This document shows, piece after piece, positions 54 to 56,054 of a stretch of DNA of 64,000 bases (the first letter of the stretch is position 1; the number at the start of each line of letters is the position of its first letter). A program made the position numbers and the translations under genes. The notes under the pieces were generated by a model. That model searched no databases. It saw only the letters and a program-made list of their open reading frames with translations, and was not told the origin of the DNA. Source of the DNA: Escherichia phage Ecwhy_1; the sequence record MH791411.1. The stretch is one strand, 5' to 3'.

Positions 54-140
54 GGTGTATCTCCTGGACTTGAGGGGAAACCATTTCCCCCTCTCGATAT
101 AAAACATTATACGTTAATCTAACTACAATGCAAGTACTTT
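54..140 (-). promoter_or_regulatory. PeSL-like cassette: early promoter + stem-loop + SD
   Basis: minus strand TTGCAT/TTGACA -35, TATAAT -10, then GGGGGAAATGGTTTCCCC hairpin just upstream of ATG. Confidence 0.6.
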
Positions 141-332
141 TTAAATTTTATTTCCGATATAGTCCGGCATGTTCTTTTCAGTCATACGCTTTGCTAATGT
201 CTGCATATGGCTTATAGCGTTCAAGGTGTCTTCCTCCAGGGATGAATCGAGATAATCAGGATCATTCTTCACCTTGCAATGATTATGATAGCGTAGTACT
301 GCCAGTACTTTTTTAACTTCTTCTACTGTCAT
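141..332 (-). CDS. hypothetical protein (63 aa)
   Basis: ORF track; ATG overlaps stop of upstream gene (ATGA coupling). Confidence 0.6.
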   Translation of the reverse strand: MTVEEVKKVLAVLRYHNHCKVKNDPDYLDSSLEEDTLNAISHMQTLAKRMTEKNMPDYIGNKI

Positions 333-601
333 AATAAGTACCCCACTTCGTTAGCTTTCAGGTTAGTATCAATCATCAGTGGATTTTTGTAGTTCACAAA
401 ACGAGTAGTTTTCTCGATAGCGAATCCCATATAATCCAGCTTACTAACAGTACATTCATTCTTAAAAACTTCTTTCGCTGCATCGATGGCTGATTGCATG
501 GATAACCGACCATCTAAATTAATGTTTCCAAATGATCCACCAGCAGAAGTAGGATTACCGTTCATATCTTTAATGATCATAGTAGCGGAGTAGCTGGACA
601 T
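329..601 (-). CDS. hypothetical protein (90 aa)
   Basis: ORF track; ATG preceded by AAAGGAAAC SD and PeSL-like cassette. Confidence 0.65.
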   Translation of the reverse strand: MSSYSATMIIKDMNGNPTSAGGSFGNINLDGRLSMQSAIDAAKEVFKNECTVSKLDYMGFAIEKTTRFVNYKNPLMIDTNLKANEVGYLL

Positions 602-690
602 AATTTTGTTTCCTTTTATTGGTGTGGGGAGAACTATTCTCCCCTTGATGTAAACTATTATACAGTACTAAAATACTTTGTCAAATACTT
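602..690 (-). promoter_or_regulatory. PeSL-like cassette
   Basis: TTGACA-17-TATAAT then GGGGAGAATAGTTCTCCCC hairpin (minus strand). Confidence 0.65.
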
Positions 691-1098
691 TTATTCGCCC
701 ATATAGATTAGATTATCATCGCCTACATAGGGATCGCAAACGTTGATTTCTTCACAGTACTTCGTGAATACATCGCCATAGTGACCTAAACCACGATCCC
801 AAAAACCAGTTCCGTGACCTTCGCGGGTAAGGAACAGATCATGACCAGCTTGCTCATAACCGTAATCAATAAACATACCGCGAACTACTTCCAGATCATT
901 ACCGTGTTTCTCAATGAAGCGAGAACATGCAATCACCGCCGCTTGACGTGCTTCATCAGATAACTCATAATCTTCCAGGTAATCGCCGTTATCATTATGT
1001 ACAGTACTGAATTGCATAGCTTCAATGTAAGCTACAACCATTGCAGCATGATTTTTATCGTTAGTGATGTTCCGAGCGAGATTAGTAGTAGTAGACAT
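691..1098 (-). CDS. hypothetical protein (135 aa)
   Basis: ORF track; ATG start; PeSL-like cassette upstream. Confidence 0.65.
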   Translation of the reverse strand: MSTTTNLARNITNDKNHAAMVVAYIEAMQFSTVHNDNGDYLEDYELSDEARQAAVIACSRFIEKHGNDLEVVRGMFIDYGYEQAGHDLFLTREGHGTGFWDRGLGHYGDVFTKYCEEINVCDPYVGDDNLIYMGE

Positions 1099-1181
1099 GA
1101 TTTTATTCCTTATTGTATTGGGGAGAACTATTCTCCCCTTGATGTAAACTATTATACAGTACTGATATACTTTGTCAATAC
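1099..1181 (-). promoter_or_regulatory. PeSL-like cassette
   Basis: TTGACA-17-TATAAT + GGGGAGAA..TTCTCCCC hairpin. Confidence 0.65.
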
Positions 1182-1403
1182 TTAATTACGTTTAAAATGA
1201 TATGTGCCTTTATCATCCTGTACGCCCCATACTGATTTACCATCAACACCAGTGAAGCCGGATTGTAATTCAATATGGAAACCATTATTATCAACTACAA
1301 AAACTTTTTTATTTTCATCCCGATAACATTGATATTCTGAATCAACATTAAAGGCCGCATCATTCAGACGATTGGAAGCGTAAATGCAAGTCATTGTAGT
1401 CAT
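1182..1403 (-). CDS. hypothetical protein (73 aa)
   Basis: track ORF trimmed: first 11 codons are read-through of the hairpin; start MTTMTC after SD. Confidence 0.55.
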   Translation of the reverse strand: MTTMTCIYASNRLNDAAFNVDSEYQCYRDENKKVFVVDNNGFHIELQSGFTGVDGKSVWGVQDDKGTYHFKRN

Positions 1404-1500
1404 GATTTTATTCCTTAATATACCAGGGAGAACCATTCCCCCTCTCGATATAAAACATTATACTTGATTCTAAGTACAATGCAAGTACTTTTTTAAAAAT
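1404..1500 (-). promoter_or_regulatory. PeSL-like cassette
   Basis: TTGCAT-N17-TATAAT + GGGGGAATGGTTCTCCC hairpin. Confidence 0.6.
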
Positions 1501-1504
1501 AGTT

Positions 1505-1627
1505 TTCAGTACTGAATACTTATATAATAGATACACTTCCGCACCCTATGGGTCAGTGAGTTATCTCTCAATGGATATATAATAGCAAAGGGACTGACCG
1601 GAGTCAATCCCTTTTTTTAATCTTTTT
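1505..1627. repeat. conserved ~120-bp intergenic element, copy 1
   Basis: shares AGATACACTnnnGCACCCTRTGGG box and GGGACTGACCGGAGTCAATCCC hairpin + T7 run with copies at 4785 and 8785. Confidence 0.6.
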
Positions 1628-2212
1628 TTATCGTGTTACCTTACTTGCTGCCACATCACGCTTTTTATAGTACTGATTCCAGATATTGCTGGTTAAACCG
1701 TAATCAAGTACTTTAATAAGTCCATTACGATCCTGGCCGATATTCTGTTTTCTGATATCTCTTATCGTTAGTGTTGATAATGTATCATCAACGTGTTGTA
1801 GTGCATCAGCAAAGCGGTGCTGGCGTTCGATTGCATTACGTTTAATATTGTACTTTAATTCATTGCACGCGTTTACGTGCTTCACACTGCCTTTGCTTGC
1901 AGTACTCAACCGATCCATAACGATAAACATATTATCAGGATCGCATAAATGCATATGCACCTTTGCAAAGTACTGTTTCAATTGAGGGCGGTCATAGTCT
2001 AAAAAATTCCATACCTTACATTCAGTTTCATTTTGTTCTACACCCGCATCACAATTCGCGACCTTAATCACTAACCGATCATTTAAAGCGAAAACTATAC
2101 GGGAAGAACCAGCACCGATGATCTCCAGGCCAGCTAACCGACAAGCTGAAAGGATCTCTTTGTTGGTTTCCATTTCTGACAGTGTACGGATGAATTTAGT
2201 ATAATTACGCAT
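1628..2212 (-). CDS. protein kinase-like protein (194 aa)
   Basis: track ORF starts at TTG inside promoter; ATG (MRNYTKF) follows AAGGAG; IGAGSSRIVF..VIKVA and RDIRKQN..VLDYG resemble kinase G-loop/Lys/catalytic loop/DFG. Confidence 0.5.
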   Translation of the reverse strand: MRNYTKFIRTLSEMETNKEILSACRLAGLEIIGAGSSRIVFALNDRLVIKVANCDAGVEQNETECKVWNFLDYDRPQLKQYFAKVHMHLCDPDNMFIVMDRLSTASKGSVKHVNACNELKYNIKRNAIERQHRFADALQHVDDTLSTLTIRDIRKQNIGQDRNGLIKVLDYGLTSNIWNQYYKKRDVAASKVTR

Positions 2213-2243
2213 TGCATGTTCTCCTTGAGTTAATGAAACTATA

Positions 2244-2486
2244 TTACAGTACTTTACTATCAATGGCAACTACTTTTTTAACATTAACGGCGTGGATCAC
2301 TTCCTTCGTGTTTTTAGTACTGAATACTTTCGCCGCTCCTTGTTCGACCGTGATACGATAGCGACCATTAACATCAACCATATTAATAAAGTCCGGCGTG
2401 CTGAATGGTGTTGTTTTACATTTGAGTACTGTTAACAGTTCCACCAGCGATGTAGTTTCTTTGATACGTTTTTCTAAAGTAATCAT
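2244..2486 (-). CDS. hypothetical protein (80 aa)
   Basis: track ORF trimmed to MITLEKR; upstream 19 codons are promoter read-through. Confidence 0.5.
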   Translation of the reverse strand: MITLEKRIKETTSLVELLTVLKCKTTPFSTPDFINMVDVNGRYRITVEQGAAKVFSTKNTKEVIHAVNVKKVVAIDSKVL

Positions 2487-2543
2487 TTTGTTTCCCCCGT
2501 GTTGGTATGTACATATAGTACTAAAACATTTGAGTACTGTCAA

Positions 2544-2762
2544 TTAGATAATATTATATTTCTTAAAATAAAATGCGTCCTGTGTTGGTTGATACTCGAT
2601 ACCGTTACCGTTATTGACTTCAACTAATAAACCTTTGTCAATTAGTTTTTTAATAGTACGATACCCTTGTTGAAAATTGGTAAAATGTGAATCATTACGA
2701 AAGGTATAACCGTGCTTAACTGCTTCATCAATAGTTTTCTTTTCGATTTTAGATAATTTCAT
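2544..2762 (-). CDS. hypothetical protein (72 aa)
   Basis: track ORF trimmed to MKLSKIEK; promoter-leader duplicated from the 2244 gene. Confidence 0.5.
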   Translation of the reverse strand: MKLSKIEKKTIDEAVKHGYTFRNDSHFTNFQQGYRTIKKLIDKGLLVEVNNGNGIEYQPTQDAFYFKKYNII

Positions 2763-2815
2763 TTTGTTTCTCCCGTGTTGGTATGTGTACATAGTACTAA
2801 AACAATTGAGTACTG

Positions 2816-3070
2816 TCAACGTGATATTAGTTTTATTTTCTTATTGTATTGTTGATGCTCATAAAGGTTTATCTTTCCTGTGTTCTCGATTACTATCCTG
2901 TTGTTAGTGTCCACGTCGATTACACGCAGTTTCCCGTTGCTTAACTTCCTAGGTAATAGGTTACCATTAATAAACTCATTAGCAAGCTGTACGGCCTTTG
3001 TGATGATTCTCTGAGGTGCTTTATAGTGTACCCGTAAGATGTTATCTTTATATAGTTGAACCTTAATCAT
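2816..3070 (-). CDS. hypothetical protein (84 aa)
   Basis: ORF track; ATG after AGGACAAACAAA. Confidence 0.55.
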   Translation of the reverse strand: MIKVQLYKDNILRVHYKAPQRIITKAVQLANEFINGNLLPRKLSNGKLRVIDVDTNNRIVIENTGKINLYEHQQYNKKIKLISR

Positions 3071-3084
3071 TTTGTTTGTCCTAT

Positions 3085-3115
3085 AAAAAAGGCGGGAACT
3101 GATCCCGCCGTGTTG
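3085..3115 (-). terminator. rho-independent terminator candidate
   Basis: GGCGGGATCAGTTCCCGCC hairpin followed by TTTTTT on minus strand after stop of 3132 gene. Confidence 0.6.
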
Positions 3116-3131
3116 TTAGTACTGCAAGTTA

Positions 3132-3527
3132 TTAGATAACCTGGCGGCGTTTACTGTATACTGTTACACGATTACCCTTACGATCATGTCGGATCTCTTT
3201 CTGGTTGCGAATCAGTTCACTTGGACGCTTAAGGTTTGCCAGGTGATCCGCGTGAGTCCATGCGGTGTGGTTTACCTGTACTTTGATATCAGAATCAGCG
3301 ATAAACTCATCTTGTGCGTCAAGTATTGCCGCCAGCATATCCGCTCGTTTTAGTTCTGCTGCTGTCAGTACTGGCTCAGGTGAATTCACAATATCAGAGA
3401 TTTCTTTGAACTGTACGGCCCAGCGTTGACCTTTCGTTGCATCTTTGCCCATGTCTTTAAATGCTGCTCCTTCCTCGCGTGCAACAATACGGGCAGCTTC
3501 ACGGGTAGCGTAGAATTTAGTAATCAT
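3132..3527 (-). CDS. hypothetical protein; paralog of 16542-16808
   Basis: shared KYFATREQARIAAR..GATFKDMG..DRKGNRVTVY; start set at MITKF after AGGA. Confidence 0.6.
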   Translation of the reverse strand: MITKFYATREAARIVAREEGAAFKDMGKDATKGQRWAVQFKEISDIVNSPEPVLTAAELKRADMLAAILDAQDEFIADSDIKVQVNHTAWTHADHLANLKRPSELIRNQKEIRHDRKGNRVTVYSKRRQVI

Positions 3528-3622
3528 GGTATACATCCTATTAGTTGAGTTAGTACTACAAGTTAGAGTCTATTATAAAGTACTATCTGGGCAATGTCAA
3601 ATAGTACTTTAAATGGATTCTA

Positions 3623-3946
3623 TTACATGTCTTTCTTACGTTTTACATCGTGGTAGCGAACTGTTATTTCTTTGTTGATCTCTTCCTCGATGCGATGAAT
3701 AACTTTTTCTTTCGGGTTGAAACCTATAACGGTTTCTTTAATGATCTCCAAGCCCGTGTATTCGCCTTGTGTACCGTAACCGTATGTAAAGGTTTCGTGT
3801 CCCAGGTCTTCCCAGCGGTCGCCAATTAACGCAGACACGTAGCAAGAGTGGTAAGTATTGCCGTGTGAATCAGTCCACCGATTAACGTTAATGTCAAAGG
3901 AGGTTACAATTTTCAATTCTACTTTCTGGGCAAGGATCATAGCCAT
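3623..3946 (-). CDS. hypothetical protein; paralog of 10466-10789
   Basis: shared RWTDSxGNTYHSCxVS..TYGY..VKRKKD; ATG start. Confidence 0.65.
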   Translation of the reverse strand: MAMILAQKVELKIVTSFDINVNRWTDSHGNTYHSCYVSALIGDRWEDLGHETFTYGYGTQGEYTGLEIIKETVIGFNPKEKVIHRIEEEINKEITVRYHDVKRKKDM

Positions 3947-4033
3947 TTTTATTTCTCTCTCTTTGTTAGGAGGGGAACCATTCCCCTCGCTTGATGTAAA
4001 CTATTATACAGTACTAAGATACTTTGTCAATAC
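3947..4033 (-). promoter_or_regulatory. PeSL-like cassette
   Basis: TTGACA-17-TATAAT + GGGGAATGGTTCCCC hairpin. Confidence 0.65.
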
Positions 4034-4216
4034 TTATTTTTTGGAAAGTTTACGCATTAATTCTACGCTTTCTTGTGAACGTTTTGCTACCTGGCAAGCT
4101 GTATGGGCAGTAAACATTTTTGTATAGTCTGACGCTTTGCCACCGAACCGAGCGGCACGTTCACGGGCACTTGGAACTAATACTATTTCTTTATTACAGA
4201 TAGTGCACTTAGCCAT
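4034..4216 (-). CDS. hypothetical small Cys-containing protein (60 aa)
   Basis: trimmed to MAKCTICNK; CxxC near N-terminus. Confidence 0.55.
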   Translation of the reverse strand: MAKCTICNKEIVLVPSARERAARFGGKASDYTKMFTAHTACQVAKRSQESVELMRKLSKK

Positions 4217-4304
4217 TTTTATTTCTCTCTCTTTGTTAGGAGGGGAACCGTTTCCCCTCACTTGATGTAAACTATTATACAGTACTAAGATACTTTGTCA
4301 ATAC
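4217..4304 (-). promoter_or_regulatory. PeSL-like cassette
   Basis: TTGACA-17-TATAAT + GGGGAAACGGTTCCCC hairpin. Confidence 0.65.
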
Positions 4305-4580
4305 TTAAGTATTGTAAATGTCGTGAATAGTGATAAAGTTTTTACGACCGTAAACATGTAAATCAGTATCAATGTAGTGCTTATCAAGTACATCCTCGAC
4401 GCTTAAAGACGTGTCGTGAATATCTTCATAAAATTGTGGATCAACAATCGTGCTTAAGTCATCTGGCGTTAACTTATCGTTAAGGCATTGAACCGCCTGG
4501 ATATCTGCTTCACGTTTCCATTGTTCCAGATTAGTAGTCAGTACTTGCTCGATTTCGTTAGCTGTAAGTAAAGTCCGCAT
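4305..4580 (-). CDS. hypothetical protein (91 aa)
   Basis: ORF track; ATG after AAGGAAAC. Confidence 0.6.
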   Translation of the reverse strand: MRTLLTANEIEQVLTTNLEQWKREADIQAVQCLNDKLTPDDLSTIVDPQFYEDIHDTSLSVEDVLDKHYIDTDLHVYGRKNFITIHDIYNT

Positions 4581-4600
4581 TTTAATGTTTCCTTATCAGT

Positions 4601-4740
4601 GGTTGATGTAAGTATTATACTCGTTTACTTTCTATTGTCAAACTATTTTATCAGGGGAGTTTTTCGTATGTCTTACTCCTGGACTACTTAACGGGGTTAC
4701 TTATTTCGTTCCCCGTCCTGATGTAAAACATTATACTTGA
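4601..4740 (-). repeat. duplicated structured leader, copy A (copy B at 15826-15960)
   Basis: ~140 bp near-identical; two hairpins (ACGGGG..CCCCGT; CAGGAGT..ACTCCCCTG) between tandem promoters. Confidence 0.6.
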
Positions 4741-4784
4741 TTCTAAGTACAATGCAAGTACTTTTTTAAAAATAGTTTTCAGTA

Positions 4785-4895
4785 CTAGCCACCAGCAAAC
4801 AATAGATACATTTATGCACCCTGTGGGCTAATTTGTTTCTATGCGTATATAATAGCAAAGGGACTGACCGGAGTCAATCCCTTTTTCAAATATTT
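4785..4895. repeat. conserved ~120-bp intergenic element, copy 2
   Basis: GCACCCTGTGGGC box + GGGACTGACCGGAGTCAATCCC hairpin + T-run. Confidence 0.6.
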
Positions 4896-5045
4896 TTAAA
4901 CTTCTTTCGGGTTGCGATATGTGATAGCGTTCGGGTACATTTGTTTAATGTTATTCCATGCCTGGTTAACATTATAACCACTTGATCGAATCAGTTGGTT
5001 ATTACCGACACCTTGAAACACTACTTCAAATAAGAATTCTTTCAT
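4896..5045 (-). CDS. hypothetical small protein (49 aa; below track cutoff)
   Basis: ATG overlaps stop of 5042 gene (ATGA); reads MKEFLFEVVFQGVGNNQLIR. Confidence 0.4.
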   Translation of the reverse strand: MKEFLFEVVFQGVGNNQLIRSSGYNVNQAWNNIKQMYPNAITYRNPKEV

Positions 5046-5215
5046 GCTTTCACCTCTCGATCTGCTTTGCCTTTACGCCAGGCCGTTGCTAATTGTTCGC
5101 GTTGCCATAAGTCGAGTGATACGTAAAGTTTTGCATTATCACCCTTCGGATATTCGCCAGTAGTACCAATCCGATAAAACAGATCTTTCAGTACTGTTAA
5201 TTCTACCTGGACCAT
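5042..5215 (-). CDS. hypothetical protein (57 aa)
   Basis: trimmed to MVQVELT after hairpin read-through. Confidence 0.5.
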   Translation of the reverse strand: MVQVELTVLKDLFYRIGTTGEYPKGDNAKLYVSLDLWQREQLATAWRKGKADREVKA

Positions 5216-5302
5216 TATACTTTCCTCTTTGTTAGGAGGGGAACTATTCCCCTTCCGATATAAAACATTATACACTTTATTCAGTACTGTGCAAGTACTT
5301 TT
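5216..5302 (-). promoter_or_regulatory. PeSL-like cassette
   Basis: promoter + GGGGAATAGTTCCCC hairpin. Confidence 0.6.
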
Positions 5303-5515
5303 TTAATCTTTCAGCCAATGATCCTGAATGAATTTTTCACCGGAACCTTGCTGCATTGATTGTAACAGACGTTCGCGATGAGCGGCGGCGAATTGCTCAG
5401 TACTATGCGTTACACCTGGTTGATATCTGGATTCACCATTTGGGGCGATGTATTGTACATCCCACGGTTTTTCGTTAGTATCAGACCATTTACGAACGAT
5501 TAGTTGACCTTGCAT
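5303..5515 (-). CDS. hypothetical protein (70 aa)
   Basis: ORF track; ATG start. Confidence 0.6.
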   Translation of the reverse strand: MQGQLIVRKWSDTNEKPWDVQYIAPNGESRYQPGVTHSTEQFAAAHRERLLQSMQQGSGEKFIQDHWLKD

Positions 5516-5598
5516 TTTTCTTTCCTCTTAGTGGGGAGAATCATTTCTCCCCTTCATGTAAACTATTATACAGTACTGGATTGCATTGTCAATAGTTT
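5516..5598 (-). promoter_or_regulatory. PeSL-like cassette
   Basis: TTGACA-17-TATAAT + GGGGAGAAATGATTCTCCCC hairpin. Confidence 0.65.
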
Positions 5599-5922
5599 TT
5601 ATTCACCTTGTTTGAATATAGTTTTCTCCATTGATTCCATGATTGCAACCAATACAGCATGGATCTCACTTAACGCGGCATCACTAAAAGCATTAATGAA
5701 TAGGCAATCATTCTCGCGAATATTTTTAATGTACTTATCAGCAGTGGTTGCGAATTCATTCAACGGCAGATCAAATGCTTTATCCCATAATGGATGGCGT
5801 AACTGTAACAGTACTGGATTATCACGATCACCAGGGGAAAACGTACCAGTGATGAAACATACGCCCGGAATACTTTCGAACTGGCAACGGACTTCCTTTG
5901 TGATAGTAGTATGAATGTACAT
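5599..5922 (-). CDS. hypothetical protein (107 aa)
   Basis: ORF track; GAGGA SD. Confidence 0.6.
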   Translation of the reverse strand: MYIHTTITKEVRCQFESIPGVCFITGTFSPGDRDNPVLLQLRHPLWDKAFDLPLNEFATTADKYIKNIRENDCLFINAFSDAALSEIHAVLVAIMESMEKTIFKQGE

Positions 5923-5949
5923 TTATTGTTATCCTCTATTAAATTAATA

Positions 5950-6138
5950 TTACAGTTTATGAATTAATTCTTTATCTAAGCGATAGCGTACATTATTAAT
6001 GGTAACAGCATTATTTTTAATGCTACGCTGTACGGGTCCACCAGCAATAACAAACGTTGCTTTATTGCCCCGAACAATGATAGCACTTCCAGGATTACCG
6101 AAATCATCTTGTACTAAAATACTTGATAAGTTTTCCAT
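5950..6138 (-). CDS. hypothetical protein (62 aa)
   Basis: ORF track. Confidence 0.55.
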   Translation of the reverse strand: MENLSSILVQDDFGNPGSAIIVRGNKATFVIAGGPVQRSIKNNAVTINNVRYRLDKELIHKL

Positions 6139-6216
6139 TTTTATTTCCTCTTAGTAGGGGAAGATGTTTCCCCTTGATGCAAGTACTATAACAGTACTGA
6201 AAACTAAATGCAAGTA
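6139..6216 (-). promoter_or_regulatory. PeSL-like cassette
   Basis: promoter + GGGGAAACATCTTCCCC hairpin. Confidence 0.6.
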
Positions 6217-6573
6217 CTATGATAAAATCATGATAGGATATTCACTATCTATCAATACCTCGAATCCGAAACCTTCGTACCATTCTTTAAGATTAAAGGC
6301 GTTATCTTCTCCCGTATCGCATTCTAAGATGATACAATCTGAATCATCGGCGGCATCAATAAAGGCATTCATTAATTCGTTACCTTCACCATTGCCCCGA
6401 CTATCAGGATCAACATAAAGAGAATCAATAAACGCTACACGGTCATAATCAAGATCCGGTGCAATGATTCCACGTTTAACAAACCAGTACTGCAATTGTG
6501 CTACTTTGCCCTGTACTTGATAGCCAGTGATCTCGCCATTGTCAGTAGTACGCGTGATATGTTGTATTCCCAT
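6217..6573 (-). CDS. hypothetical protein (118 aa)
   Basis: ORF track; TTGACA-17-TATAAT promoter and GAGGAT SD upstream. Confidence 0.6.
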   Translation of the reverse strand: MGIQHITRTTDNGEITGYQVQGKVAQLQYWFVKRGIIAPDLDYDRVAFIDSLYVDPDSRGNGEGNELMNAFIDAADDSDCIILECDTGEDNAFNLKEWYEGFGFEVLIDSEYPIMILS

Positions 6574-6636
6574 GATTACTATCCTCAGTTAAGATATAAA
6601 ACATTATACACTATCTTTCAGTACTGTCAATACTTT

Positions 6637-6894
6637 TTATCTCATAGATCTATGCCAACAATTACGCGGATCTCTTTTAAAAGTACTATCATGATCCTCC
6701 TGGCAAGTAATACAATACATGCACCCTATAACGGCCTGGCGTCGATTCTCAGGGATTTTATCGCCGCAGTCGAGGCAATGTACAAGTGATTCTCTTTGTG
6801 CGTTAATTTGCTTTCTAGCGTGGTTAACGGCGGCCTGAATCACTGCATGAATCTCGTCTTGTTCGGCCCCGTCTTTCGCGTATCCTACTGCCAT
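6637..6894 (-). CDS. TraR/DksA-family C4 zinc-finger protein (85 aa)
   Basis: CLDCGDKIPENRRQAVIGCMYCITC = CxxC-x17-CxxC with conserved IPxxRR. Confidence 0.65.
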   Translation of the reverse strand: MAVGYAKDGAEQDEIHAVIQAAVNHARKQINAQRESLVHCLDCGDKIPENRRQAVIGCMYCITCQEDHDSTFKRDPRNCWHRSMR

Positions 6895-7056
6895 TATTTT
6901 AACCTCATTATAAAAATACTATAGTACTGTAATGCTACAATAATACTACTAGTGTTTATCTTATTCAAACCATATGATACTACATATCCACCAGCATTAC
7001 CACGAATAGTAACGCCTTTGTACTGTCTATATAAATTCAACTGCGTATATTGCCTT

Positions 7057-7129
7057 TGATCAAGAATTGATCAGAATTATACGCCTTATGCTAAATTGAT
7101 CCAGTACTTTTTTGATCATTTATTGATCG
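7057..7129. promoter_or_regulatory. cluster of five TGATC(A) / GATC sites
   Basis: five GATC within ~73 bp in an intergenic region. Confidence 0.5.
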
Positions 7130-7223
7130 ATATTATATAGTTACATTTGTGCACCCTATGGGTTAGTGACGTTCTCGTCTTGATGTAAGTATTATGCCAG
7201 TACTGGAGGATATTGTCAATAGA

Positions 7224-7421
7224 TTATTTTAATTTTTTTCTGTCATTGATTAATGCTTTCAGTACTATACTAATAACTTGCAATGATTCATCAATGACAA
7301 TGAAATTATTCTCTTTCATTAGATGATAGTTACCATTGATTGTATATTCTAACGAGTACTGTTTACGTTTAATTTTTGATAATGTTTCTATTTGTTTTTG
7401 TACTGATTTCATGCTAATCAT
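7224..7421 (-). CDS. hypothetical protein (65 aa)
   Basis: track ORF starts at TTG; ATG (MISMKS) two codons downstream. Confidence 0.5.
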   Translation of the reverse strand: MISMKSVQKQIETLSKIKRKQYSLEYTINGNYHLMKENNFIVIDESLQVISIVLKALINDRKKLK

Positions 7422-7489
7422 TGTCAAACGTCCTGTAACGCATTCTAACGAGATAAACGGTTTAGTACTGGCATTGTATAGGGTAAATG

Positions 7490-7527
7490 ATTAAAGCCCA
7501 CCAGCGTTAACCAGTGGGCTATAATAT
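7490..7527 (-). terminator. rho-independent terminator candidate
   Basis: AGCCCACTGG..CTGGTGGGCT hairpin + T-run (minus). Confidence 0.5.
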
Positions 7528-8023
7528 TACATCTTGCGGATAATCTTAACAGTATCTTTCACCGATTTACCGTTTTGCTGACATTGCTCGATCATCGCGT
7601 ATTGTTCTGCGGTCAGATCCTCGCCAGTTTTTGCCAGTACTGCGTCGATGAATGAATCCAGTGCGATCATTTTATTTCTCTCTTAGGTTAAGTTAACTAC
7701 TGTTTATAAAACTTATTATACAGTACTATCAATCTATGTCAATAGTACTGGTAATATATTTTAGCGGTAGTCGTCGTATGCTTTATTCACCTGGCGAATA
7801 TAACTTTCAAAGGCTTCGTCTACCGTTTCATACTCCCGAACATAATCACCATATGAAACTACATACATACCTTTTTGATCTTCAAACGTCATGATGATAG
7901 AATCCAGACCAACGATTTCAGTTTTTGCGATGATAGCCATTTTTTAATTCCTTAGTAGTGTAGTTGATAAAAGTTATTATGTCAGTACTATCAAACTATG
8001 TCAATAGTACTGTGATAATATTT

Positions 8024-8236
8024 TTAGTTAATGATAGTCAGTGTAAAATTGTAATCACCGCAGCGATATAGCACGTTATTCCCAAATGTCCCAACTAATC
8101 GCACATCACACAAAACGCCGGTTTTTTCTTTTACTTCCTTGATACTTGTAACTCCTGTAATATCTTTATTAAAGTATTCATGATCTGAAAATAAAACTTG
8201 TTTTGCATTTTTTAATTTCGACCGGATATTAGCCAT
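8024..8236 (-). CDS. hypothetical protein (70 aa)
   Basis: ORF track; PeSL-like cassette upstream. Confidence 0.6.
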   Translation of the reverse strand: MANIRSKLKNAKQVLFSDHEYFNKDITGVTSIKEVKEKTGVLCDVRLVGTFGNNVLYRCGDYNFTLTIIN

Positions 8237-8332
8237 TTTGTTTTCTCTCTCTGTTAGTGGGGAGAAGTTTTTCTCCCCTTGATGTAAACTATTATACAGT
8301 ACTATAATCTATTGTCAAACTATTTTTTTATA
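8237..8332 (-). promoter_or_regulatory. PeSL-like cassette
   Basis: TTGACA-17-TATAAT + GGGGAGAAAAACTTCTCCCC hairpin. Confidence 0.65.
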
Positions 8333-8674
8333 TTATTCGAAATCTTCTGGACCGGACTGATAATCATCTTCACCGTATGCACTTTCTAACCGCTCGCCAG
8401 TGTGATCATCAGTTAGTGAGTCATCCTCATAGTTCACGTCTACGCCAGTGATGTAAAACTGGCTATCGTCTGGATCATTGAAATTAATTTTCTGTATGTT
8501 TACAATAACTGTATTGATGCCCAGGACACCGCCATCAGCCGTTACAAAGTACTGATAGTTTTCGCAACCGCCTGAATTGAAACCGTAATTAATTTCGGCC
8601 CGACCATCATTTAAACGCAGTGCCTGGGCGATGATTTCGTTTTCAAAGTTAGATTGAGCAATTGAGATAGTCAT
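8333..8674 (-). CDS. hypothetical protein (113 aa)
   Basis: trimmed to MTISIAQ after hairpin read-through. Confidence 0.55.
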   Translation of the reverse strand: MTISIAQSNFENEIIAQALRLNDGRAEINYGFNSGGCENYQYFVTADGGVLGINTVIVNIQKINFNDPDDSQFYITGVDVNYEDDSLTDDHTGERLESAYGEDDYQSGPEDFE

Positions 8675-8760
8675 GATTTGTTTCCTTATTACCAGGGGAA
8701 ACCGTTTCCCCCTCTCGATGTAAAACATTATACGCTTATTGAGATAGTTTGCAAGTACTT
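8675..8760 (-). promoter_or_regulatory. PeSL-like cassette
   Basis: promoter + GGGGGAAACGGTTTCCCC hairpin. Confidence 0.6.
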
Positions 8761-8784
8761 TCTACAAATACTTTTAAAATAGTT

Positions 8785-8905
8785 TTCAGTACTCAATACT
8801 CATATAATAGATACACTTATGCACCCTGTGGGCTAGTGAGCTATCTCTCAATGAATATATAATAGCAAAATGGCTGACCGGAGTCAACCACTTTTTTCAT
8901 TTATT
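8785..8905. repeat. conserved ~120-bp intergenic element, copy 3
   Basis: GCACCCTGTGGGC box + TGGCTGACCGGAGTCAACCA hairpin + T6. Confidence 0.6.
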
Positions 8906-9126
8906 TTTAGCTTTTAGAATCGCCGCCTTTCGCGTCATGCCTTGCTTGATGTATTCTTGTACTTTCGCTTTACGTGCATTCGCTTTATTTGCTTTCGTAA
9001 ATGCCGAACAACTTTTATAGTTTAAACCTGTTGGATTCATTTAAATCACCATAAAGAATAGATAGGTTACTAACAACGCCGCGATCAATGCACCGACCAG
9101 GGCCGAACTATAGTAAGCTAATGTTT

Positions 9127-9279
9127 TCATTTTTTAGCCTGAAAGTAATGTTTAATTTGAGCGGCGGTCAGTGCACAATTACGCAGGAAGTTTTCTGTAT
9201 AACTGCGGCGAGTACTGAAAGAGAATTGACCTTTGCCGTTACCGATAGTAACATCAAACCGAGCGTTGTATTGTTTCAT
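9127..9279 (-). CDS. hypothetical protein (50 aa)
   Basis: trimmed to MKQYNARFD. Confidence 0.45.
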   Translation of the reverse strand: MKQYNARFDVTIGNGKGQFSFSTRRSYTENFLRNCALTAAQIKHYFQAKK

Positions 9280-9363
9280 TTTGATTCTCCTGTTATTGGG
9301 GAGAATCATTTCTCCCCTTCATGTAAAACATTATACAGTACTAAAAACTAATTGCAAGTACTA
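9280..9363 (-). promoter_or_regulatory. PeSL-like cassette
   Basis: promoter + GGGGAGAAATGATTCTCCCC hairpin. Confidence 0.6.
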
Positions 9364-9507
9364 TTTTTTAGATTTACGCAAACTTTCTACCATCTCAGGA
9401 GTAAGGCCCGGCGGGTAGGAAACTACTTCATCAACGAAACGTAAAGGGAATACCCCAGCGAAAGGTGAACGTGCTTTCTTAGTATTACTCTTTTTTGATG
9501 CTTTCAT

Positions 9508-9576
9508 TTCATATTCCTTAATTAGTGGGGAGAATCATTTCTCCCCTTCATGTAAAACATTATACGCGTTTAAAAA
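9508..9576 (-). promoter_or_regulatory. PeSL-like cassette
   Basis: same hairpin as 9280 cassette; precedes an unannotated ~48-aa ORF (MKASKKSN..) at ~9364-9507. Confidence 0.5.
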
Positions 9577-9786
9577 CTAATTGCAAGTACTATTTGAAAG
9601 TAAATGCTCATACGCTGCATTAACTACGTTTTCAATAACCGACTGTACAGAAAGATCCCCCACGTCCTGGCTATAGTAGAAATCGCTTACAGTGGTGTCA
9701 TCGTATGCAAATACTTTACCAGGTACTGCATCAATCACATACATATTAACCTTTAAGATGTCGATCTTATCCTGTACAGTAAGCAT
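9577..9786 (-). CDS. hypothetical protein (69 aa)
   Basis: ORF track. Confidence 0.55.
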   Translation of the reverse strand: MLTVQDKIDILKVNMYVIDAVPGKVFAYDDTTVSDFYYSQDVGDLSVQSVIENVVNAAYEHLLSNSTCN

Positions 9787-9791
9787 ATTAA

Positions 9792-10064
9792 TTAACCTTT
9801 TAAGTACTGGCTTAAGTAGTCTTGTTGATCTTCGGTGATTGCAGCCATCTTCCCTAGTACTGGATTAATGATATAATCCCCTGTAACGTCCTGTAACGCA
9901 TTCTCAGGCGGTTTAACGGCTGGGGTAGCCATAGCCATCGCCTGGACTTGTTCGACGCTATAACGCTCATATAGGCGGCATTCTTCCGGTGTTAACATAG
10001 CATCAATGCGTTTCATTGGTTTAATGATGCTTTCAACTTCATTCAGTACTTGATTAACGTTCAT
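9792..10064 (-). CDS. hypothetical protein (90 aa)
   Basis: ORF track; ATG. Confidence 0.6.
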   Translation of the reverse strand: MNVNQVLNEVESIIKPMKRIDAMLTPEECRLYERYSVEQVQAMAMATPAVKPPENALQDVTGDYIINPVLGKMAAITEDQQDYLSQYLKG

Positions 10065-10115
10065 GGTATAATCCCCAATATAAGCGGCCTGAATCGACCG
10101 CTAACGATGTTTTGA

Positions 10116-10385
10116 TTAATAGGTGTATGGTTGACGTTCAAACAATGATTGCACGTTGTACGCCCCACTAATGGGCTTTGCTGGTAAATCAATTTTATAT
10201 TGCTCACGCTTAAAGATAATAAAACGGCAATTGTTTTTAACATCAAAATTGATTGAACGTTCCAGTAGTTTACCATCGTGCACAAATACAAGATAACCGC
10301 TCGCTACTTGTTTTGTAGTACTGGTTGCAACCATAGACCGCCGAACATGTGTACCTGCGTCGATTAAAGTACTGATATTTTTCAT
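10116..10385 (-). CDS. hypothetical protein (89 aa)
   Basis: ORF track; AAGAGGAA SD; preferred over overlapping 10061-10291. Confidence 0.55.
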   Translation of the reverse strand: MKNISTLIDAGTHVRRSMVATSTTKQVASGYLVFVHDGKLLERSINFDVKNNCRFIIFKREQYKIDLPAKPISGAYNVQSLFERQPYTY

Positions 10386-10465
10386 TATACGTTCCTCTTA
10401 AGTTAATTTAATTTCTTTCCCCTATGCAGACACTATATCAAAGTATCTGCATAAAGTAAAGCTAA

Positions 10466-10789
10466 TTAAAGATCTTTTTTGCGTTTAACATTCTGTACAG
10501 TACAATGCAACGGGATATTAAGATCATTGCACAAACGAGTAAGGGAGGTTTCATCAGTATTAAGCCCGTCTACTGATTCCTTTAATAGATCTAACGCCGT
10601 TTGTTGATATGCATCTTCATAGCCATAAGTAAATGATTCAACCGCCAGATCATTCAAACCGTTATCCAGTTCGACGCTTACATGACAAGAATGATAAGTA
10701 TTGCCATATGAATCAGTCCAACGTTTACCGTCAACATTGATTGCACGGATTGCAGCCAGGGAAACGGTGTTAATGATAGTTTTAGCCAT
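10466..10789 (-). CDS. hypothetical protein; paralog of 3623-3946
   Basis: shared RWTDSYGNTYHSC..TYGY..VKRKKD. Confidence 0.65.
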   Translation of the reverse strand: MAKTIINTVSLAAIRAINVDGKRWTDSYGNTYHSCHVSVELDNGLNDLAVESFTYGYEDAYQQTALDLLKESVDGLNTDETSLTRLCNDLNIPLHCTVQNVKRKKDL

Positions 10790-10878
10790 TTTTGTATTCC
10801 TTAAATTAATATGTTGTCTTGATAAAATCTATTATGCCAGTACTATCAAACTATGTCAATAGTACTGTGATAATATTT

Positions 10879-11091
10879 TTACTTACTTTCTTTCGCTGCT
10901 TTGTGCGTTGCCACTGCCATAACCACATCAGCACGAACAAAGTTTTTAACCGTGTCGCTGTAATAATTGATCGCTTCATCAATATCTGCGAACATCCGAT
11001 ACATACCGCACCACGATACTTTATAACCTGCTTTCACTTCTTCCAGCTTAACCAGTGATTTGTTAACTTTGATTTTAGTAATGATAGCCAT
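10879..11091 (-). CDS. hypothetical protein (70 aa)
   Basis: ORF track; upstream promoter cassette identical to the one at 10790-10878. Confidence 0.6.
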   Translation of the reverse strand: MAIITKIKVNKSLVKLEEVKAGYKVSWCGMYRMFADIDEAINYYSDTVKNFVRADVVMAVATHKAAKESK

Positions 11092-11319
11092 TTTATTTTC
11101 CTCAGTTGTCTTGATAAAATCTATTATGCCAGTACTATCAAACTATGTCAATAGCACTGTGATAATATTTTTACTTACTTTTTGCTTTCTTGATTGCTTC
11201 CACCTGGTCGGCCCATTCTTTACCCCATACTTGTAAATTATAATGGTACTGGCAAAGAGCAACGCCCCGCTTTAAACCCGTAATAGATTTCTGACCACAT
11301 TGACAAGTTTTCATTTTAG

Positions 11320-11400
11320 TTTCCTTGTAGTGGGGAGAACCATTTTCTCCCCTTGATGTAATGTATTATACTTTATTCGATTTACTTTGCAAGTACTTTT
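11320..11400 (-). promoter_or_regulatory. PeSL-like cassette
   Basis: promoter + GGGGAGAAAATGGTTCTCCCC hairpin; precedes unannotated ~47-aa Cys-containing ORF (MKTCQCGQK..) at ~11176-11319. Confidence 0.5.
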
Positions 11401-11628
11401 TTAATTTAATTCATCAAGGCAAAGGATACGCTCAACGCCCAAATCAGTTAAACTAATCGACGGCACTTGATAGGTTTCAATGTATGCTACACTTGCCCAC
11501 TGACCGAACTCATTAACGGCCCAGGTATTCATTGCATTTTGCAATTCCGCACCTTCCTTGTTGGTAATGACTGCAACTACTTGTTCGTTGCCAGTAGTAC
11601 CAGATACGCGAGTAATGATAATAGCCAT
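11401..11628 (-). CDS. hypothetical protein (75 aa)
   Basis: trimmed to MAIIITRV. Confidence 0.55.
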   Translation of the reverse strand: MAIIITRVSGTTGNEQVVAVITNKEGAELQNAMNTWAVNEFGQWASVAYIETYQVPSISLTDLGVERILCLDELN

Positions 11629-11720
11629 TGTTTTGATTCCTTTGATTTGGAAGGAGAACCGTTTCCCCCTCTCGATGTAAAACATTATACGCTAATCTCT
11701 TAATCGTGCAAGTACTTTTT
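11629..11720 (-). promoter_or_regulatory. PeSL-like cassette
   Basis: promoter + GGGGGAAACGGTTCTCC hairpin. Confidence 0.6.
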
Positions 11721-11869
11721 ATTACTTTTTGCAAAATACTTTAAACGCTCTCAATCGCGTTCTTACAGCCTTAACGCCACCAGCTAGGGCAATGCATCAG
11801 ATAATCAGTTTAATGCGTTAGAATCGTTTCTAGGCGGTGCTGGTGGCATGGTAAACGATAAACACAAAA

Positions 11870-11913
11870 AAGCCCACCGTTTAAGGTGGGCTAGTGATTC
11901 AGTACTTTAATTG
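11870..11913 (-). terminator. rho-independent terminator
   Basis: GCCCACC-TTAAAC-GGTGGGC hairpin + TTTTTT on minus strand after stop. Confidence 0.7.
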
Positions 11914-12396
11914 TTATGCTTCAACTTTGCGATGAGATTCGATCCATTCCTCGCGAGTCATACCGCTGGCGTTAATCGCGTCCAGTACTACCGCAATGCA
12001 GTTACCACGCACCGGAATCAGATATTCTTCCCCGTTGTCCAGTACTACCGCTACGCGTTCCTGAATCCATTTTTTGGCTTTTACTTCTGGCTTGTCTTCC
12101 CCATACTTAACCGCCAGGGCTTTTTGTGCCATCTCTGTAACTACTTCCAGATCCAATCCAACTACTGCCGCCTGAATACTTTCGATTGTTGCTTGTAGTT
12201 CTGCTTCACGGGCCGCCTTTGCCGCTTCAATTTCTGCCGCTTTATTTGCTTGTAGTTCTTTCGCAGTACTGTACGCGATGTTAAAATTATTGCGTACCGC
12301 TTTCATGGTATCGTTATCCAGTTCAGCCAGGATCTCAGCCGCGACGTTAGTTTCATTTGCTACCAGTGCTTTGATGAATGATTTTACATTAGCCAT
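11914..12396 (-). CDS. hypothetical protein (160 aa), Ala/Glu-rich
   Basis: track ORF starts at TTG; ATG (MANVKSF) follows GAGGA SD. Confidence 0.6.
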   Translation of the reverse strand: MANVKSFIKALVANETNVAAEILAELDNDTMKAVRNNFNIAYSTAKELQANKAAEIEAAKAAREAELQATIESIQAAVVGLDLEVVTEMAQKALAVKYGEDKPEVKAKKWIQERVAVVLDNGEEYLIPVRGNCIAVVLDAINASGMTREEWIESHRKVEA

Positions 12397-12599
12397 TTTA
12401 TAAATCCTCAATTAAAGTTTAGTTTACGTTTATTAGTGTATCAAAGTTTTCTCGACGTGTCCAGTTTTTCGTTCGACTTACTGGCGGTCTACTTAGTGCT
12501 CCCCGTCTTGATGTAATACATTCTACGCTTTTCTGCGGTAATGTCAACTACTTTCTTAAAACTATTTTCAAAGTATCTCAGTACTACGATACTACAAAA

Positions 12600-12629
12600 A
12601 CAAAAAAGCCCACCAGGTGGGCTATGTAC
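12600..12629 (-). terminator. rho-independent terminator
   Basis: GCCCACC-TGGTGGGC hairpin + T-run (minus). Confidence 0.65.
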
Positions 12630-12860
12630 TTAATCAGTGAGTAAAATATTAAACACTTTACCATTTAACGTTATTGGTGCACTGCTACCAGGCACAAGAT
12701 CCGTTAGTATACCTGCAATCGCTTTATCATTGGCTACCTTTCCAGTGTCCAACAGTACTACAGTACTGATAAGATTAACGCTCGTTTCAATATCATAATG
12801 CACGGCGTTAAGTAGTTGTGTAGTACTGCTTTCGTTAAGTAAAACAATTCGCTTAGTCAT
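12630..12860 (-). CDS. hypothetical protein (76 aa)
   Basis: ORF track. Confidence 0.55.
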   Translation of the reverse strand: MTKRIVLLNESSTTQLLNAVHYDIETSVNLISTVVLLDTGKVANDKAIAGILTDLVPGSSAPITLNGKVFNILLTD

Positions 12861-12881
12861 GATGTTACCCCGTAGTATCTA

Positions 12882-13181
12882 TCAACGGCAATTAATAACG
12901 CCGGTATGAGTTACTTTCTCGGTATCCATTACAGTGACCGAACCGCGTTTAGCACTGGCATCATAATAAATTGTCGTGCTACCGTTTTCGTCTTCTTCAT
13001 GGAACGGGCCGTTTTTAAATGCTTCCGGCTGGATCTCTAAATCCTTTAATACAATCTCGCCAGTTCTTTCATCGGTCATTGCAACAGTGCACTGAATGAA
13101 TTTTTCACTACTTACATCTAATGACGCATTAACAGCGAAAGAGGAAACAGATAAAGCCAGGGCGATGATTGCAATTTTCAT
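12882..13181 (-). CDS. secreted hypothetical protein (99 aa)
   Basis: N-terminal signal-peptide-like MKIAIIALALSVSSFAVNAS. Confidence 0.6.
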   Translation of the reverse strand: MKIAIIALALSVSSFAVNASLDVSSEKFIQCTVAMTDERTGEIVLKDLEIQPEAFKNGPFHEEDENGSTTIYYDASAKRGSVTVMDTEKVTHTGVINCR

Positions 13182-13265
13182 TTGATTATCCTTAGTTACC
13201 AGGGGAAACCGTTTCCCCTTGCGATGTAAAATATTATACAGTACTAAAAACTAATTGCAAGTACT
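13182..13265 (-). promoter_or_regulatory. PeSL-like cassette
   Basis: promoter + GGGGAAACGGTTTCCCC hairpin. Confidence 0.6.
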
Positions 13266-13502
13266 TTATGATTTTTTATAAAACATTTCAGCAGTGATAT
13301 TTTTACCCGTTGGCTGTACTTTATCCAGAATTTTTTGATGCCCTGGTCGTCCAAAGGAATATGATCCGTAAACAGTAAACCAGTAGTTACCCTCAGTGTT
13401 TACATGTACAGCACAATAAGGAACACCACGCGATTCATCACTAGTAAAGTGTGATACCGTTCCCGTTACATTCGCAGACGTTGATTTGATTTGTTCGACC
13501 AT
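13266..13502 (-). CDS. hypothetical protein (78 aa)
   Basis: ORF track. Confidence 0.6.
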   Translation of the reverse strand: MVEQIKSTSANVTGTVSHFTSDESRGVPYCAVHVNTEGNYWFTVYGSYSFGRPGHQKILDKVQPTGKNITAEMFYKKS

Positions 13503-13580
13503 TTTCTTATTCCTTAGTTACCAGGGGAACCGCTCCCCCTATGCAAAACATTATACGCGTTTAAAAACTAATTGCAAGTA
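13503..13580 (-). promoter_or_regulatory. PeSL-like cassette
   Basis: promoter + GGGGGAGCGGTTCCCC hairpin. Confidence 0.6.
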
Positions 13581-13610
13581 TTTTAATAAAAAGTATTTGA
13601 AAAATAGTTG

Positions 13611-13680
13611 TTGACAAGTGCATCCAGTACTGGCATAATTACTACATCAAGACGAAACAGTCACTAACCCACCGGGTGCC
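13611..13680 (+). promoter_or_regulatory. plus-strand sigma70-type promoter + conserved box
   Basis: TTGACA-N17-CATAAT on plus strand, ACCCACCGGGTGC box ~30 nt downstream. Confidence 0.5.
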
Positions 13681-13745
13681 GAGATCCGTCTATTAAATGA
13701 TTCAGTACTGAAAAAGTAACGGGGAGTTATTATCTCCCCGTGTTG

Positions 13746-13967
13746 TTATTTTGTAAGGTATAAACAGAAGTCGCCTTTATTTGCTACGCCGCCAGTGTAA
13801 CGCGAGGAATAGTTAGAAACGTCCTGGACTTCTGCTATTACCAGGGTATCATCATTCAATTCGTCGCAGAAGCAAACGGCTGGATCTTGTACGCCGATTT
13901 TGTCGGCATGTTCCCGCATAGATTTAACCAGTGCTTCCAGTTGGGAAAGAGTAGTGATATTAGCCAT
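13746..13967 (-). CDS. hypothetical protein (73 aa)
   Basis: trimmed to MANITTL. Confidence 0.55.
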   Translation of the reverse strand: MANITTLSQLEALVKSMREHADKIGVQDPAVCFCDELNDDTLVIAEVQDVSNYSSRYTGGVANKGDFCLYLTK

Positions 13968-14051
13968 TTTATTTTCCTCATTACCAGGGAGAACCATTTC
14001 TCCCTTTGATGTAAACCATTATACAGTACTGAAAACTAATTGCAAGTACTT
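13968..14051 (-). promoter_or_regulatory. PeSL-like cassette
   Basis: promoter + GGGAGAAATGGTTCTCCC hairpin. Confidence 0.6.
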
Positions 14052-14240
14052 TTAATTAAATTCCATAAAATCATTTTCAACGTGCACAACAATCTGATTA
14101 TTTTTAAAGGACGCAGAAAACTCTATACAATCATAAACCGCTTTTTCTGTTACCAGACTATGAGCACCAATCGGATTAATTGGGGATTGAATTGTTTCAA
14201 TCTCGTTACCTTGTTCATTAACGATTAAAATATTAAACAT
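14052..14240 (-). CDS. hypothetical protein (62 aa)
   Basis: ORF track. Confidence 0.5.
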   Translation of the reverse strand: MFNILIVNEQGNEIETIQSPINPIGAHSLVTEKAVYDCIEFSASFKNNQIVVHVENDFMEFN

Positions 14241-14279
14241 TGCCGTTACTCCTGGATAGTGTTAACTCGATATAAAGTA

Positions 14280-14462: not shown

Positions 14463-14536
14463 GATTAAAGCTCCTGGATAGTGTTAACTCGATATAAAGT
14501 ATTATACAGTACTGAAAACTAATTGCAAGTACTTTT

Positions 14537-55829: not shown

Positions 55830-56054
55830 TCAATTTTTAGTCACTTTACAATTTGAATCTTTTTTGTACTGAACAATCACATTGTTCTTAAGGAAGATGA
55901 TGGTCCCATAGGAACCTTGGGCTGCAACTTCAACAATATGGTTCTTATATGTTTCAGTATATCCTTCCATCTCGTTGATACACACTACATGATACTTTGG
56001 TTTAGCACATACAACAGTACTCAAGAATAGCAGTACTAGTACTAGATATTTCAT
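55830..56054 (-). CDS. secreted hypothetical protein (74 aa)
   Basis: signal peptide MKYLVLVLLFLSTVVCA. Confidence 0.6.
   Translation of the reverse strand: MKYLVLVLLFLSTVVCAKPKYHVVCINEMEGYTETYKNHIVEVAAQGSYGTIIFLKNNVIVQYKKDSNCKVTKN

Follow-up and report, generated by a model that had tools for sequence, protein, structure and literature searches.

Dam-sensitive promoters such as IS10 pIN, P1 cre and dnaA P2 carry a GATC site within a core hexamer. For SeqA, the minimal binding geometry is a pair of GATC sites lying 11 bp apart on the same face of the helix, and PF05869-family members of phages T1, HP1 and 933W methylate GATC. Operator arrays phased by about 11 bp are known as well, as in the 7-4-7 design of the Pho box and in the parC/ParR iterons of R1 around the par promoter. 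In phage P1, the Dam-regulated pac site holds seven TGATCA/G hexamers in 161 bp (PMC10028697). Here, we describe a cluster of five GATC sites located in an optional early cassette of a jumbo coliphage, together with the alleles in which it occurs and the regulatory role that it may have.

The stretch of DNA that we analysed (64,000 nucleotides of Escherichia phage Ecwhy_1, MH791411.1; hereafter the window) comes from a jumbo coliphage of the genus Asteriusvirus (121Q/PBECO4 group), and phage WPEC3 is 99.7% identical to it over 6000-8500. In positions 1 to about 20000, small genes are densely packed on the minus strand, and this array falls in the direct terminal repeat annotated in vB_Ec-M-J (1-21525); in that phage, the cluster is found at about 12.1 kb of the 21,525 bp. 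A 329-bp intergenic query was 100% identical in fEgEco12. In that phage, the terminal repeat measures 20,993 bp, as PhageTerm and restriction digests confirmed (PMC13070987), and the cluster falls in its middle, about 11.3 kb in, and not at an end. Further along the window, about twelve consecutive ORFs of 358-414 aa at 24344-39599 (plus strand) look like a tandem paralogous gene family.

The window as a whole contains 129 GATC against about 167-200 expected. GATC is 2.6-fold depleted in 20001-64000 (45 observed, 118 expected), whereas 1-20000 has no such deficit (84 observed, 86 expected), and selection on Dam sites appears to differ between these two parts of the genome. It is worth mentioning that GCGC is absent from all 64 kb, with a Markov expectation of about 40 in 1-20000 and about 21 in 20001-64000, while CGCG, CCGG and GGCC are near expectation. 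Since one 4-mer is wholly avoided, pressure from a GCGC-specific nuclease, of the host or of the phage, is suggested; a literature search on GCGC avoidance returned nothing relevant. GTAC occurs more often than expected (199 times against 131 in 1-20000 and 420 against 288 in 20001-64000), and the early promoters have AGTACT(G) built in, both at the spacer end (..agtactgTATAAT) and as a GTAC just 5′ of the −35, for example at 6603-6630 and 7715-7742.

The original prediction, made from the letters of the window, was of five GATC sites within about 73 bp, four of them reading TTGATCA or TTGATCC. Both counts hold. GATC starts at 7058, 7069, 7098, 7114 and 7125; on the plus strand all five sites read TTGATC, with TTGATCA three times, TTGATCC once and TTGATCG as the fifth, and on the coding (minus) strand the repeat is read as GATCAAW (Table 1). 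The comparison of the GATC count with expectation, which had been proposed as a check, also came out in favour of the cluster, with a local density (5 per 72 bp) far above that of both window parts (4.2/kb in 1-20000 and 1.0/kb in 20001-64000). In fact, half of the intergenic GATCs in the annotated stretch 3000-11500 belong to it. Of 1000 dinucleotide-preserving shuffles of 1-20000, two gave five or more GATC in 72 bp, as did one of 300 shuffles of the whole window, and the Poisson expectation of five same-strand TTGATC in 73 bp is about 1e-8 for the window and 2e-7 for its terminal-repeat part.

The five-site cluster is real and non-random. These chance figures treat the sites as independent, though, and overstate the evidence for selection, because local duplication links four of the sites: TTTGATCAnnnATTGATCnnnATTATA, a 27-nt direct repeat found at 7055-7081 and 7111-7137, contains four of the five, and an internal 11-bp repeat is present besides it. 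Sites 1 and 2 together make up the 20-nt unit TTGATCAAGAATTGATCAGA. The GATC pairs 7058/7069 and 7114/7125 are each spaced by 11 bp and lie on the same helical face; the second pair directly follows a TATAAT-like hexamer (7137..7132, minus strand), which adjoins site 5.

Table 1. Sites of the GATC cluster, predicted promoters and neighbouring features (window positions; sites are numbered relative to the expected P2 start, +1 near 7069).
Feature	Position	Strand	Description
Optional cassette	6903..7232		330 bp; Pa, leader element, GATC cluster with P2, 48-aa ORF
Predicted promoter Pa	7191..7219	-	strong upstream promoter; TTGACA-17-(TG)CATAAT, 11/12 consensus
Leader element	7140..7185	-	promoter-proximal, repeated; CATCAAGACGAGAACGTCACTAACCCATAGGGTGCACAAATGTAAC; one of at least 8 such elements in the terminal repeat
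Site 5, TTGATCG	7123..7129 (GATC 7125-7128)	+	about -59..-56 of P2; 11 bp from site 4
Site 4, TTGATCA	7112..7118 (GATC 7114-7117)	+	about -48..-45 of P2
Site 3	7096..7103	-	TGGATC on the minus strand is the P2 -35 hexamer (7103..7098); -32..-29
Predicted promoter P2	7076..7103	-	aaaaaaGTAC-TGGATC-N16(..ggcg)-TATAAT
Site 2, TTGATCA	7067..7073 (GATC 7069-7072)	+	overlaps the predicted P2 start (-3..+1); allele A only
Site 1, TTGATCA	7056..7062 (GATC 7058-7061)	+	about +9..+12 of predicted P2; allele A only
48-aa ORF	7040..6894	-	phrog_38664; annotated in several records
DksA/TraR C4 zinc-finger gene	6637..6894	-	85 aa; PF01258, E 3.7e-9; phrog_54

No similar array was found elsewhere in the 64-kb window, a pattern scan of IMG/VR returned only 121Q plus single, probably chance, matches, and E. 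coli genomes searched with 7030-7145 gave nothing similar. Our literature search found no description of the cluster or of Asteriusvirus promoters, and the papers that it turned up on this phage group neither mention the cluster nor map such promoters. Two other places in the window have GATC in a noticeable arrangement. At 55815-55838, two inverted GATCAAT heptads form a perfect 24-nt palindrome, AAAAATTGATCTAGATCAATTTTT, at the end of the ORF 55830..56054 in the GATC-depleted part, at a locus found in only 9 phage records; this palindrome could bind the factor of the cluster, or else be a weak terminator. At 17405-17437 (minus strand), a promoter-like TTGATG-17-TATAAT has GATC on both sides of its −10 (aatGATCcaTATAATGATCtc).

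The terminal repeat is rich in sigma-70-type promoters, with 108 consensus matches against 68 expected and a dozen perfect TTGACA-16-TATAAT, and these promoters sort into recurring classes (class 1-4). The template of the class-2 early promoters is aaaaaGTAC-TTGCAA-N16-TATAAT, with 15 copies in 1-20000. When P2 is set against these 15 copies, the A-tract, the GTAC, the hexamer, the 16-nt spacer ending in GCG and the TATAAT align position by position. P2 is hence predicted to be a degenerate, weakened copy of a class-2 sigma-70 early promoter. Its core, aaaGTAC-TGGATC-N16(ggcg)-TATAAT, is followed by tct-GATCAAT-tctt-GATCAAA-GG, then by 12 nt and the TTG of the downstream ORF. The same alignment shows that P2 does not have the class-2 −35 (TTGCAA/TTGCAT) and carries TGGATC instead. 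Moreover, the P2 leader tctGATCAATtcttGATCAAAgg is without the class-2 GGGGAGA...TCTCCCC hairpin, and the two downstream GATCAAW repeats stand where this hairpin would be. A GATC is present in the −35 hexamer of the predicted P2 in both alleles that are described below, as TGGATC in allele A and TTGATC in allele B, 16 nt before TATAAT. The allele A hexamer is poor (3/6) and was missed by the promoter scan, while in allele B the scan reports TTGATC-16-TATAAT with 10/12. A candidate promoter on the plus strand (TTGATC-18-TATAGT, 7112-7141, 9/12) was not adopted because its register is not conserved in allele B.

P2 lies downstream of the stronger Pa, and a transcript from Pa would cross the cluster at about +56 to +127. 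From 5′ to 3′ on the minus strand, the order is Pa, the leader element CATCAAGACGAGAACGTCACTAACCCATAGGGTGC, cTATATAAT-atc-GATCAAT-aaat-GATCAAA and then P2. Elements of the leader family (..A(G/A)CCCAYMGGGTGC..GTAWCTAT..) are placed 25-45 nt 3′ of class-3/4 promoters (TTGACA/T-17-CATAAT or TATTAT), and at least eight copies occur, on both strands, at 1536, 4811, 7146, 8816, 16069(+), 16128, 13668(+) and 18054. For the CCCAYMGGGTGC family, there was no covariation and no Rfam match; the element may function as a leader RNA or bind a protein. At 13611-13752 (plus strand), a promoter TTGACA-17-CATAAT amid a minus-strand region is followed by a leader element and, about 100 nt on, by a bidirectional terminator (13719-13741), which makes this segment a candidate short non-coding RNA. 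The convergent promoters 16021(+), of 12/12 consensus, and 16193(−), each with a leader element, face each other across about 170 bp. At 1579-1614, 4849-4884 and 8859-8894 (minus strand), terminator and promoter are fused, because the −35 (TTGACT) of the promoter that follows, TTGACT-17-TATTAT, is part of a terminator-like hairpin, AAAGGGATTGACTCCGGTCAGTCCCTTT.

The cluster had been placed in the intergenic region between the TraR-like gene and the next gene. It does lie in a non-coding stretch (7041-7223), but a conserved 48-aa ORF, whose TTG is 17 bp downstream of the cluster, separates it from the DksA/TraR gene. Site 1 immediately precedes the AAAGG ribosome-binding site of this ORF. The start codon is TTG in allele A and GTG in allele B, at the same aligned codon, and the differences between the two alleles are distributed 11/9/19 over the three codon positions, where the third position dominates. 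Judged from this pattern and from its stop codon, which shares bases with the ATG of the DksA/TraR gene (TAATG), the 48-aa ORF is probably a real small gene. With this overlap, the two genes are probably translationally coupled, and a gene for a GNAT acetyltransferase comes after DksA/TraR. Homologues of the 48-aa ORF were found within the genus only, and it has a GxYVVSYG stretch in common with the neighbouring 59-aa gene at 7761..7940. A single-sequence AlphaFold model of the protein, one long helix at pLDDT 69.5, was uninformative. The idea of the 48-aa protein as a DNA-binding autoregulator was rejected, as it has no Pfam or PDB match. Similarly, a plus-strand CDS of 65 aa annotated over the cluster in some allele-B records was judged spurious, because a TGA at 7057 interrupts it in allele A.

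The whole cassette is flanked by a 10-bp direct repeat, ATTATTTTAA (6893-6902 and 7223-7232). The cassette is cleanly absent from phAPEC6, in which the DksA start directly overlaps the stop of the upstream gene; the 87% coverage pattern recurs in UE-S1. Because phAPEC6 does without the entire 330 bp, the GATC cluster is dispensable. The cassette may have come by insertion, or may have been lost elsewhere through deletion at a microhomology.

Among its carriers, the cassette occurs in different forms. Allele A (11 records with at least 95% identity and a partial match in EC.P1) has five GATC, except in phage Turkey5, which has four after losing site 1 (GATC to GAAC). Allele B (15 records, about 79% identity) has four GATC at 0, 11, 16 and 27, with CGTC and GCAT in place of sites 1 and 2 and an extra site 11 bp from site 3. 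A third form was obtained from an anchor scan of metagenomes, in the two contigs OERM01000014.1 and OERD01000139.1, and combines a B-type left half with an A-type right half, so that it carries sites 3-5 only. Sites 3-5 are invariant in 18 of the 18 sequences examined, yet they sit in a block that is nearly identical across all alleles anyway. Between sites 3 and 4, a run of T ranges in length from 4 to 7 nt, thus the upstream pair does not keep a constant phasing with the −35. A 20-nt two-site unit, TTGATCAAG(A/T)ATTGATCAGA, is found in both alleles, 3′ of the P2 −10 in allele A and over the P2 −35 in allele B. Alleles A and B each possess two 11-bp pairs, despite their diverged surroundings, and this conservation is the best hint of selection. 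Nonetheless, the two-pair picture would look the same if a short unit had been moved by gene conversion or template switching.

Regarding methylation, the genus encodes a 173-aa “Dam”-family adenine methyltransferase of PF05869 (Sharanji gp542), and the 121Q copy is 100% identical to it. Copies with at least 80% identity are present in 35 records, and the enzyme is about 32% identical to its Stx-phage homologues. Its gene (Sharanji 20316-20837, corresponding to 121Q 193985-194503) adjoins a ribonucleotide reductase gene.

We tentatively propose, with a probability of roughly 0.4, that the cluster is an operator-like, probably methylation-sensitive binding array that throttles the cassette. The GATCAAW array would serve as a protein-binding site extending over the −35, the start, the +10 and the −45/−57 UP-element zone of the predicted P2. 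A bound protein would block RNA polymerase at P2 and obstruct the read-through from Pa, and such a blockage would restrict or time the production of the small protein and of the TraR-like protein, which binds RNA polymerase. Binding, or the recognition of the −35, is probably sensitive to adenine methylation, since every site holds a Dam target and the genus encodes the PF05869 methylase. The original prediction had spoken of an operator array or a Dam/SeqA-type site. The association with a predicted promoter supports the regulatory side of this claim, while sequestration of the origin type is not supported, given that there is no DnaA box within 17 kb. Several observations count against the operator: two rounds of local duplication can explain four of the five sites, the site count varies (five in allele A, four in Turkey5, four in allele B and three in the metagenome form), and the cassette is missing in phAPEC6 and in other members of the genus.

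As local duplication can account for those four sites, the shared flanks and the re-used 20-nt unit could be the outcome of copying or gene conversion and not of selection. In that case, the cluster would have no dedicated function: slippage, duplication and gene conversion would have acted on a decaying, redundant promoter copy, where the GATCs are incidental. We regard this explanation as somewhat unlikely. The 27-nt direct repeat and the internal 11-bp repeat speak for it, the region stems from a common intergenic scaffold of the terminal repeat, and GATC is not counter-selected in 1-20000, where the observed count equals expectation closely, so that GATC-bearing repeats are free to arise there. 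The range of three to five sites, the variable homopolymer and the absence of the cassette from phAPEC6 fit this explanation too, as does the lack of a similar array elsewhere in the window or, beyond 121Q, in IMG/VR. However, copying accounts less easily for the two 11-bp pairs that both alleles keep though the intervening sequence is about 79% identical, for the 20-nt two-site unit at two different places relative to the promoter core, and for sites lying exactly on functional positions of the predicted promoter. Another alternative is a pure Dam/SeqA sensor, in which only the GATC cores matter and the cassette is switched with replication. Fully methylated incoming DNA would permit initiation at P2 and read-through from Pa; after replication, host SeqA would bind the hemimethylated 11-bp pairs, or methylation of the −35 adenine would alter recognition by sigma-70. 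By the SeqA geometry (at least two same-face GATC no more than about 31 bp apart), the cluster offers two 11-bp pairs, and allele B has its sites at 0/11/16/27; by density, its 5 GATC per 72 bp were reached in 0.2-0.3% of shuffles, and lie far above the local background. The GATCs that fall in the −35 hexamer and at the start site of the predicted promoter, the Dam+ enterobacterial hosts and the Dam-family methylase of the genus point in the same direction, and an involvement of Dam/SeqA at the cluster is plausible. Of the Dam/SeqA claim in the original prediction, GATC density and the 11-bp pairs agree with it, while the shared unit TTGATC is longer than GATC and the cluster is dispensable. 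In fact, TTGATC is kept in five of the five sites in one orientation, and Dam and SeqA need only less than that. This longer repeat unit would favour an operator, or copying, over a pure Dam target, and the operator is preferred over the pure Dam/SeqA target because the unit is both longer than GATC and directional. Taken with the low identity of the phage methylase to its Stx-phage homologues, with a site number and spacing that vary between isolates, and with the dozens of other early promoters that have no GATC in a lytic phage without evident need of such a switch, we consider the pure sensor unlikely. The operator and the Dam/SeqA readings are not mutually exclusive. Perhaps the PF05869 methylase acts together with SeqA, or with a TTGATC-binding phage protein, to sense how the array is methylated and toggle the TraR/DksA-like cassette after the terminal repeat has replicated, but such a replication-coupled epigenetic switch seems to us distinctly unlikely.

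An effect at the RNA level was considered as well. The inverted repeat I2, with 19-nt arms that are 84% complementary, would allow a GAUC stem (7058-7076 with 7110-7128) in the Pa transcript, to serve as an RNase III site or in translational control of the 48-aa ORF, and a ribosome-binding site is situated directly 3′ of the inverted repeat. Yet the minimum-free-energy fold skips the I2 stem, the z-scores are −1.8 (allele A) and −1.9 (allele B) with structures that differ, and allele B and the metagenome allele are without one arm. Rfam gave no match at gathering score in the window and, in 6800-7300, only a chance snoRNA (E = 4.9). With weak z-scores, differing folds and no Rfam match, RNA structure was rejected as the main explanation and is very improbable. 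We give the least credence to a packaging site similar to P1 pac or to a replication site similar to the AT-rich GATC clusters of oriC and P1 oriR, even though TGATCA/G, the hexamer of P1 pac, recurs in four of the five sites, the setting is AT-rich, and GATCATTTATTG may resemble an oriC 13-mer. The cluster lies mid-repeat, about 11.3 kb inside, and not at the packaging cut; its 2+1+2 sites in 73 bp are not the 4+3 in about 160 bp; and the cassette is missing from viable members of the genus. There is no DnaA box within 17 kb, the nearest match to TTWTNCACA being at 24072, and there are no iterons, as the only repeats near the cluster are the GATC-bearing ones. An essential pac site or origin is excluded because the cassette is an indel and its alleles carry 3, 4 or 5 sites. 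The position in the terminal repeat, the dispensability and the absence of a DnaA box led us to reject both.

If the operator-like array is functional, it would represent a compact case of a jumbo phage tuning one accessory early gene pair, which includes a TraR/DksA-type modulator of RNA polymerase. Such tuning would be separate from the dozens of neighbouring constitutive early promoters, and it might use adenine methylation. Natural alleles with 0, 3, 4 and 5 sites exist, which makes a test of function inexpensive. A non-functional array would instead illustrate that local copying in phage intergenic DNA makes motif clusters that look regulatory. Either way, the cluster is local and dispensable; it does not belong to the core mechanisms of the phage.

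Compared with the described systems, the cluster resembles IS10 pIN, P1 cre and dnaA P2 in having a GATC in the predicted −35 and another at the start site, in a phage of Dam+ hosts. Those promoters have one to three sites and a dam dependence that was shown experimentally, whereas the cluster has five sites, a longer motif and a predicted promoter. With the SeqA sequestration clusters of oriC, the dnaA promoter and P1 oriR, it has in common the dense GATC, the AT-rich DNA and the pairs one helical turn apart; unlike them, it contains no DnaA boxes or iterons, is dispensable and lies in the early-gene array of a lytic jumbo phage. The likeness to P1 pac consists of TGATCA three times and TGATCG once, the fifth hexamer being TGATCC. 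In P1, however, 4+3 hexamers extend over 161 bp around the cleavage site within pacA, at the packaging cut, while the cluster has 2+1+2 in 73 bp of an optional cassette about 11 kb from the genome ends.

In layout, the cluster is similar to the Pho box and R1 parC in its 7-nt direct repeats 4 nt apart, in the pairs on both sides of the −35/−10 and in the small ORF immediately downstream, but the 48-aa ORF of the cassette has no DNA-binding family or fold. The phage's own class 1-4 promoters, and the early regions of T4/T5 type, provide another comparison: P2 has the same template and the same tandem placing behind a stronger promoter, and differs from the class-2 promoters in that its −35 is replaced by a GATC-bearing hexamer and its leader hairpin by two GATCAAW repeats. 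Altogether, the cluster looks like a repeat-decorated, possibly methylation-sensitive promoter, that is, a local regulatory site, neither essential nor of a new kind.
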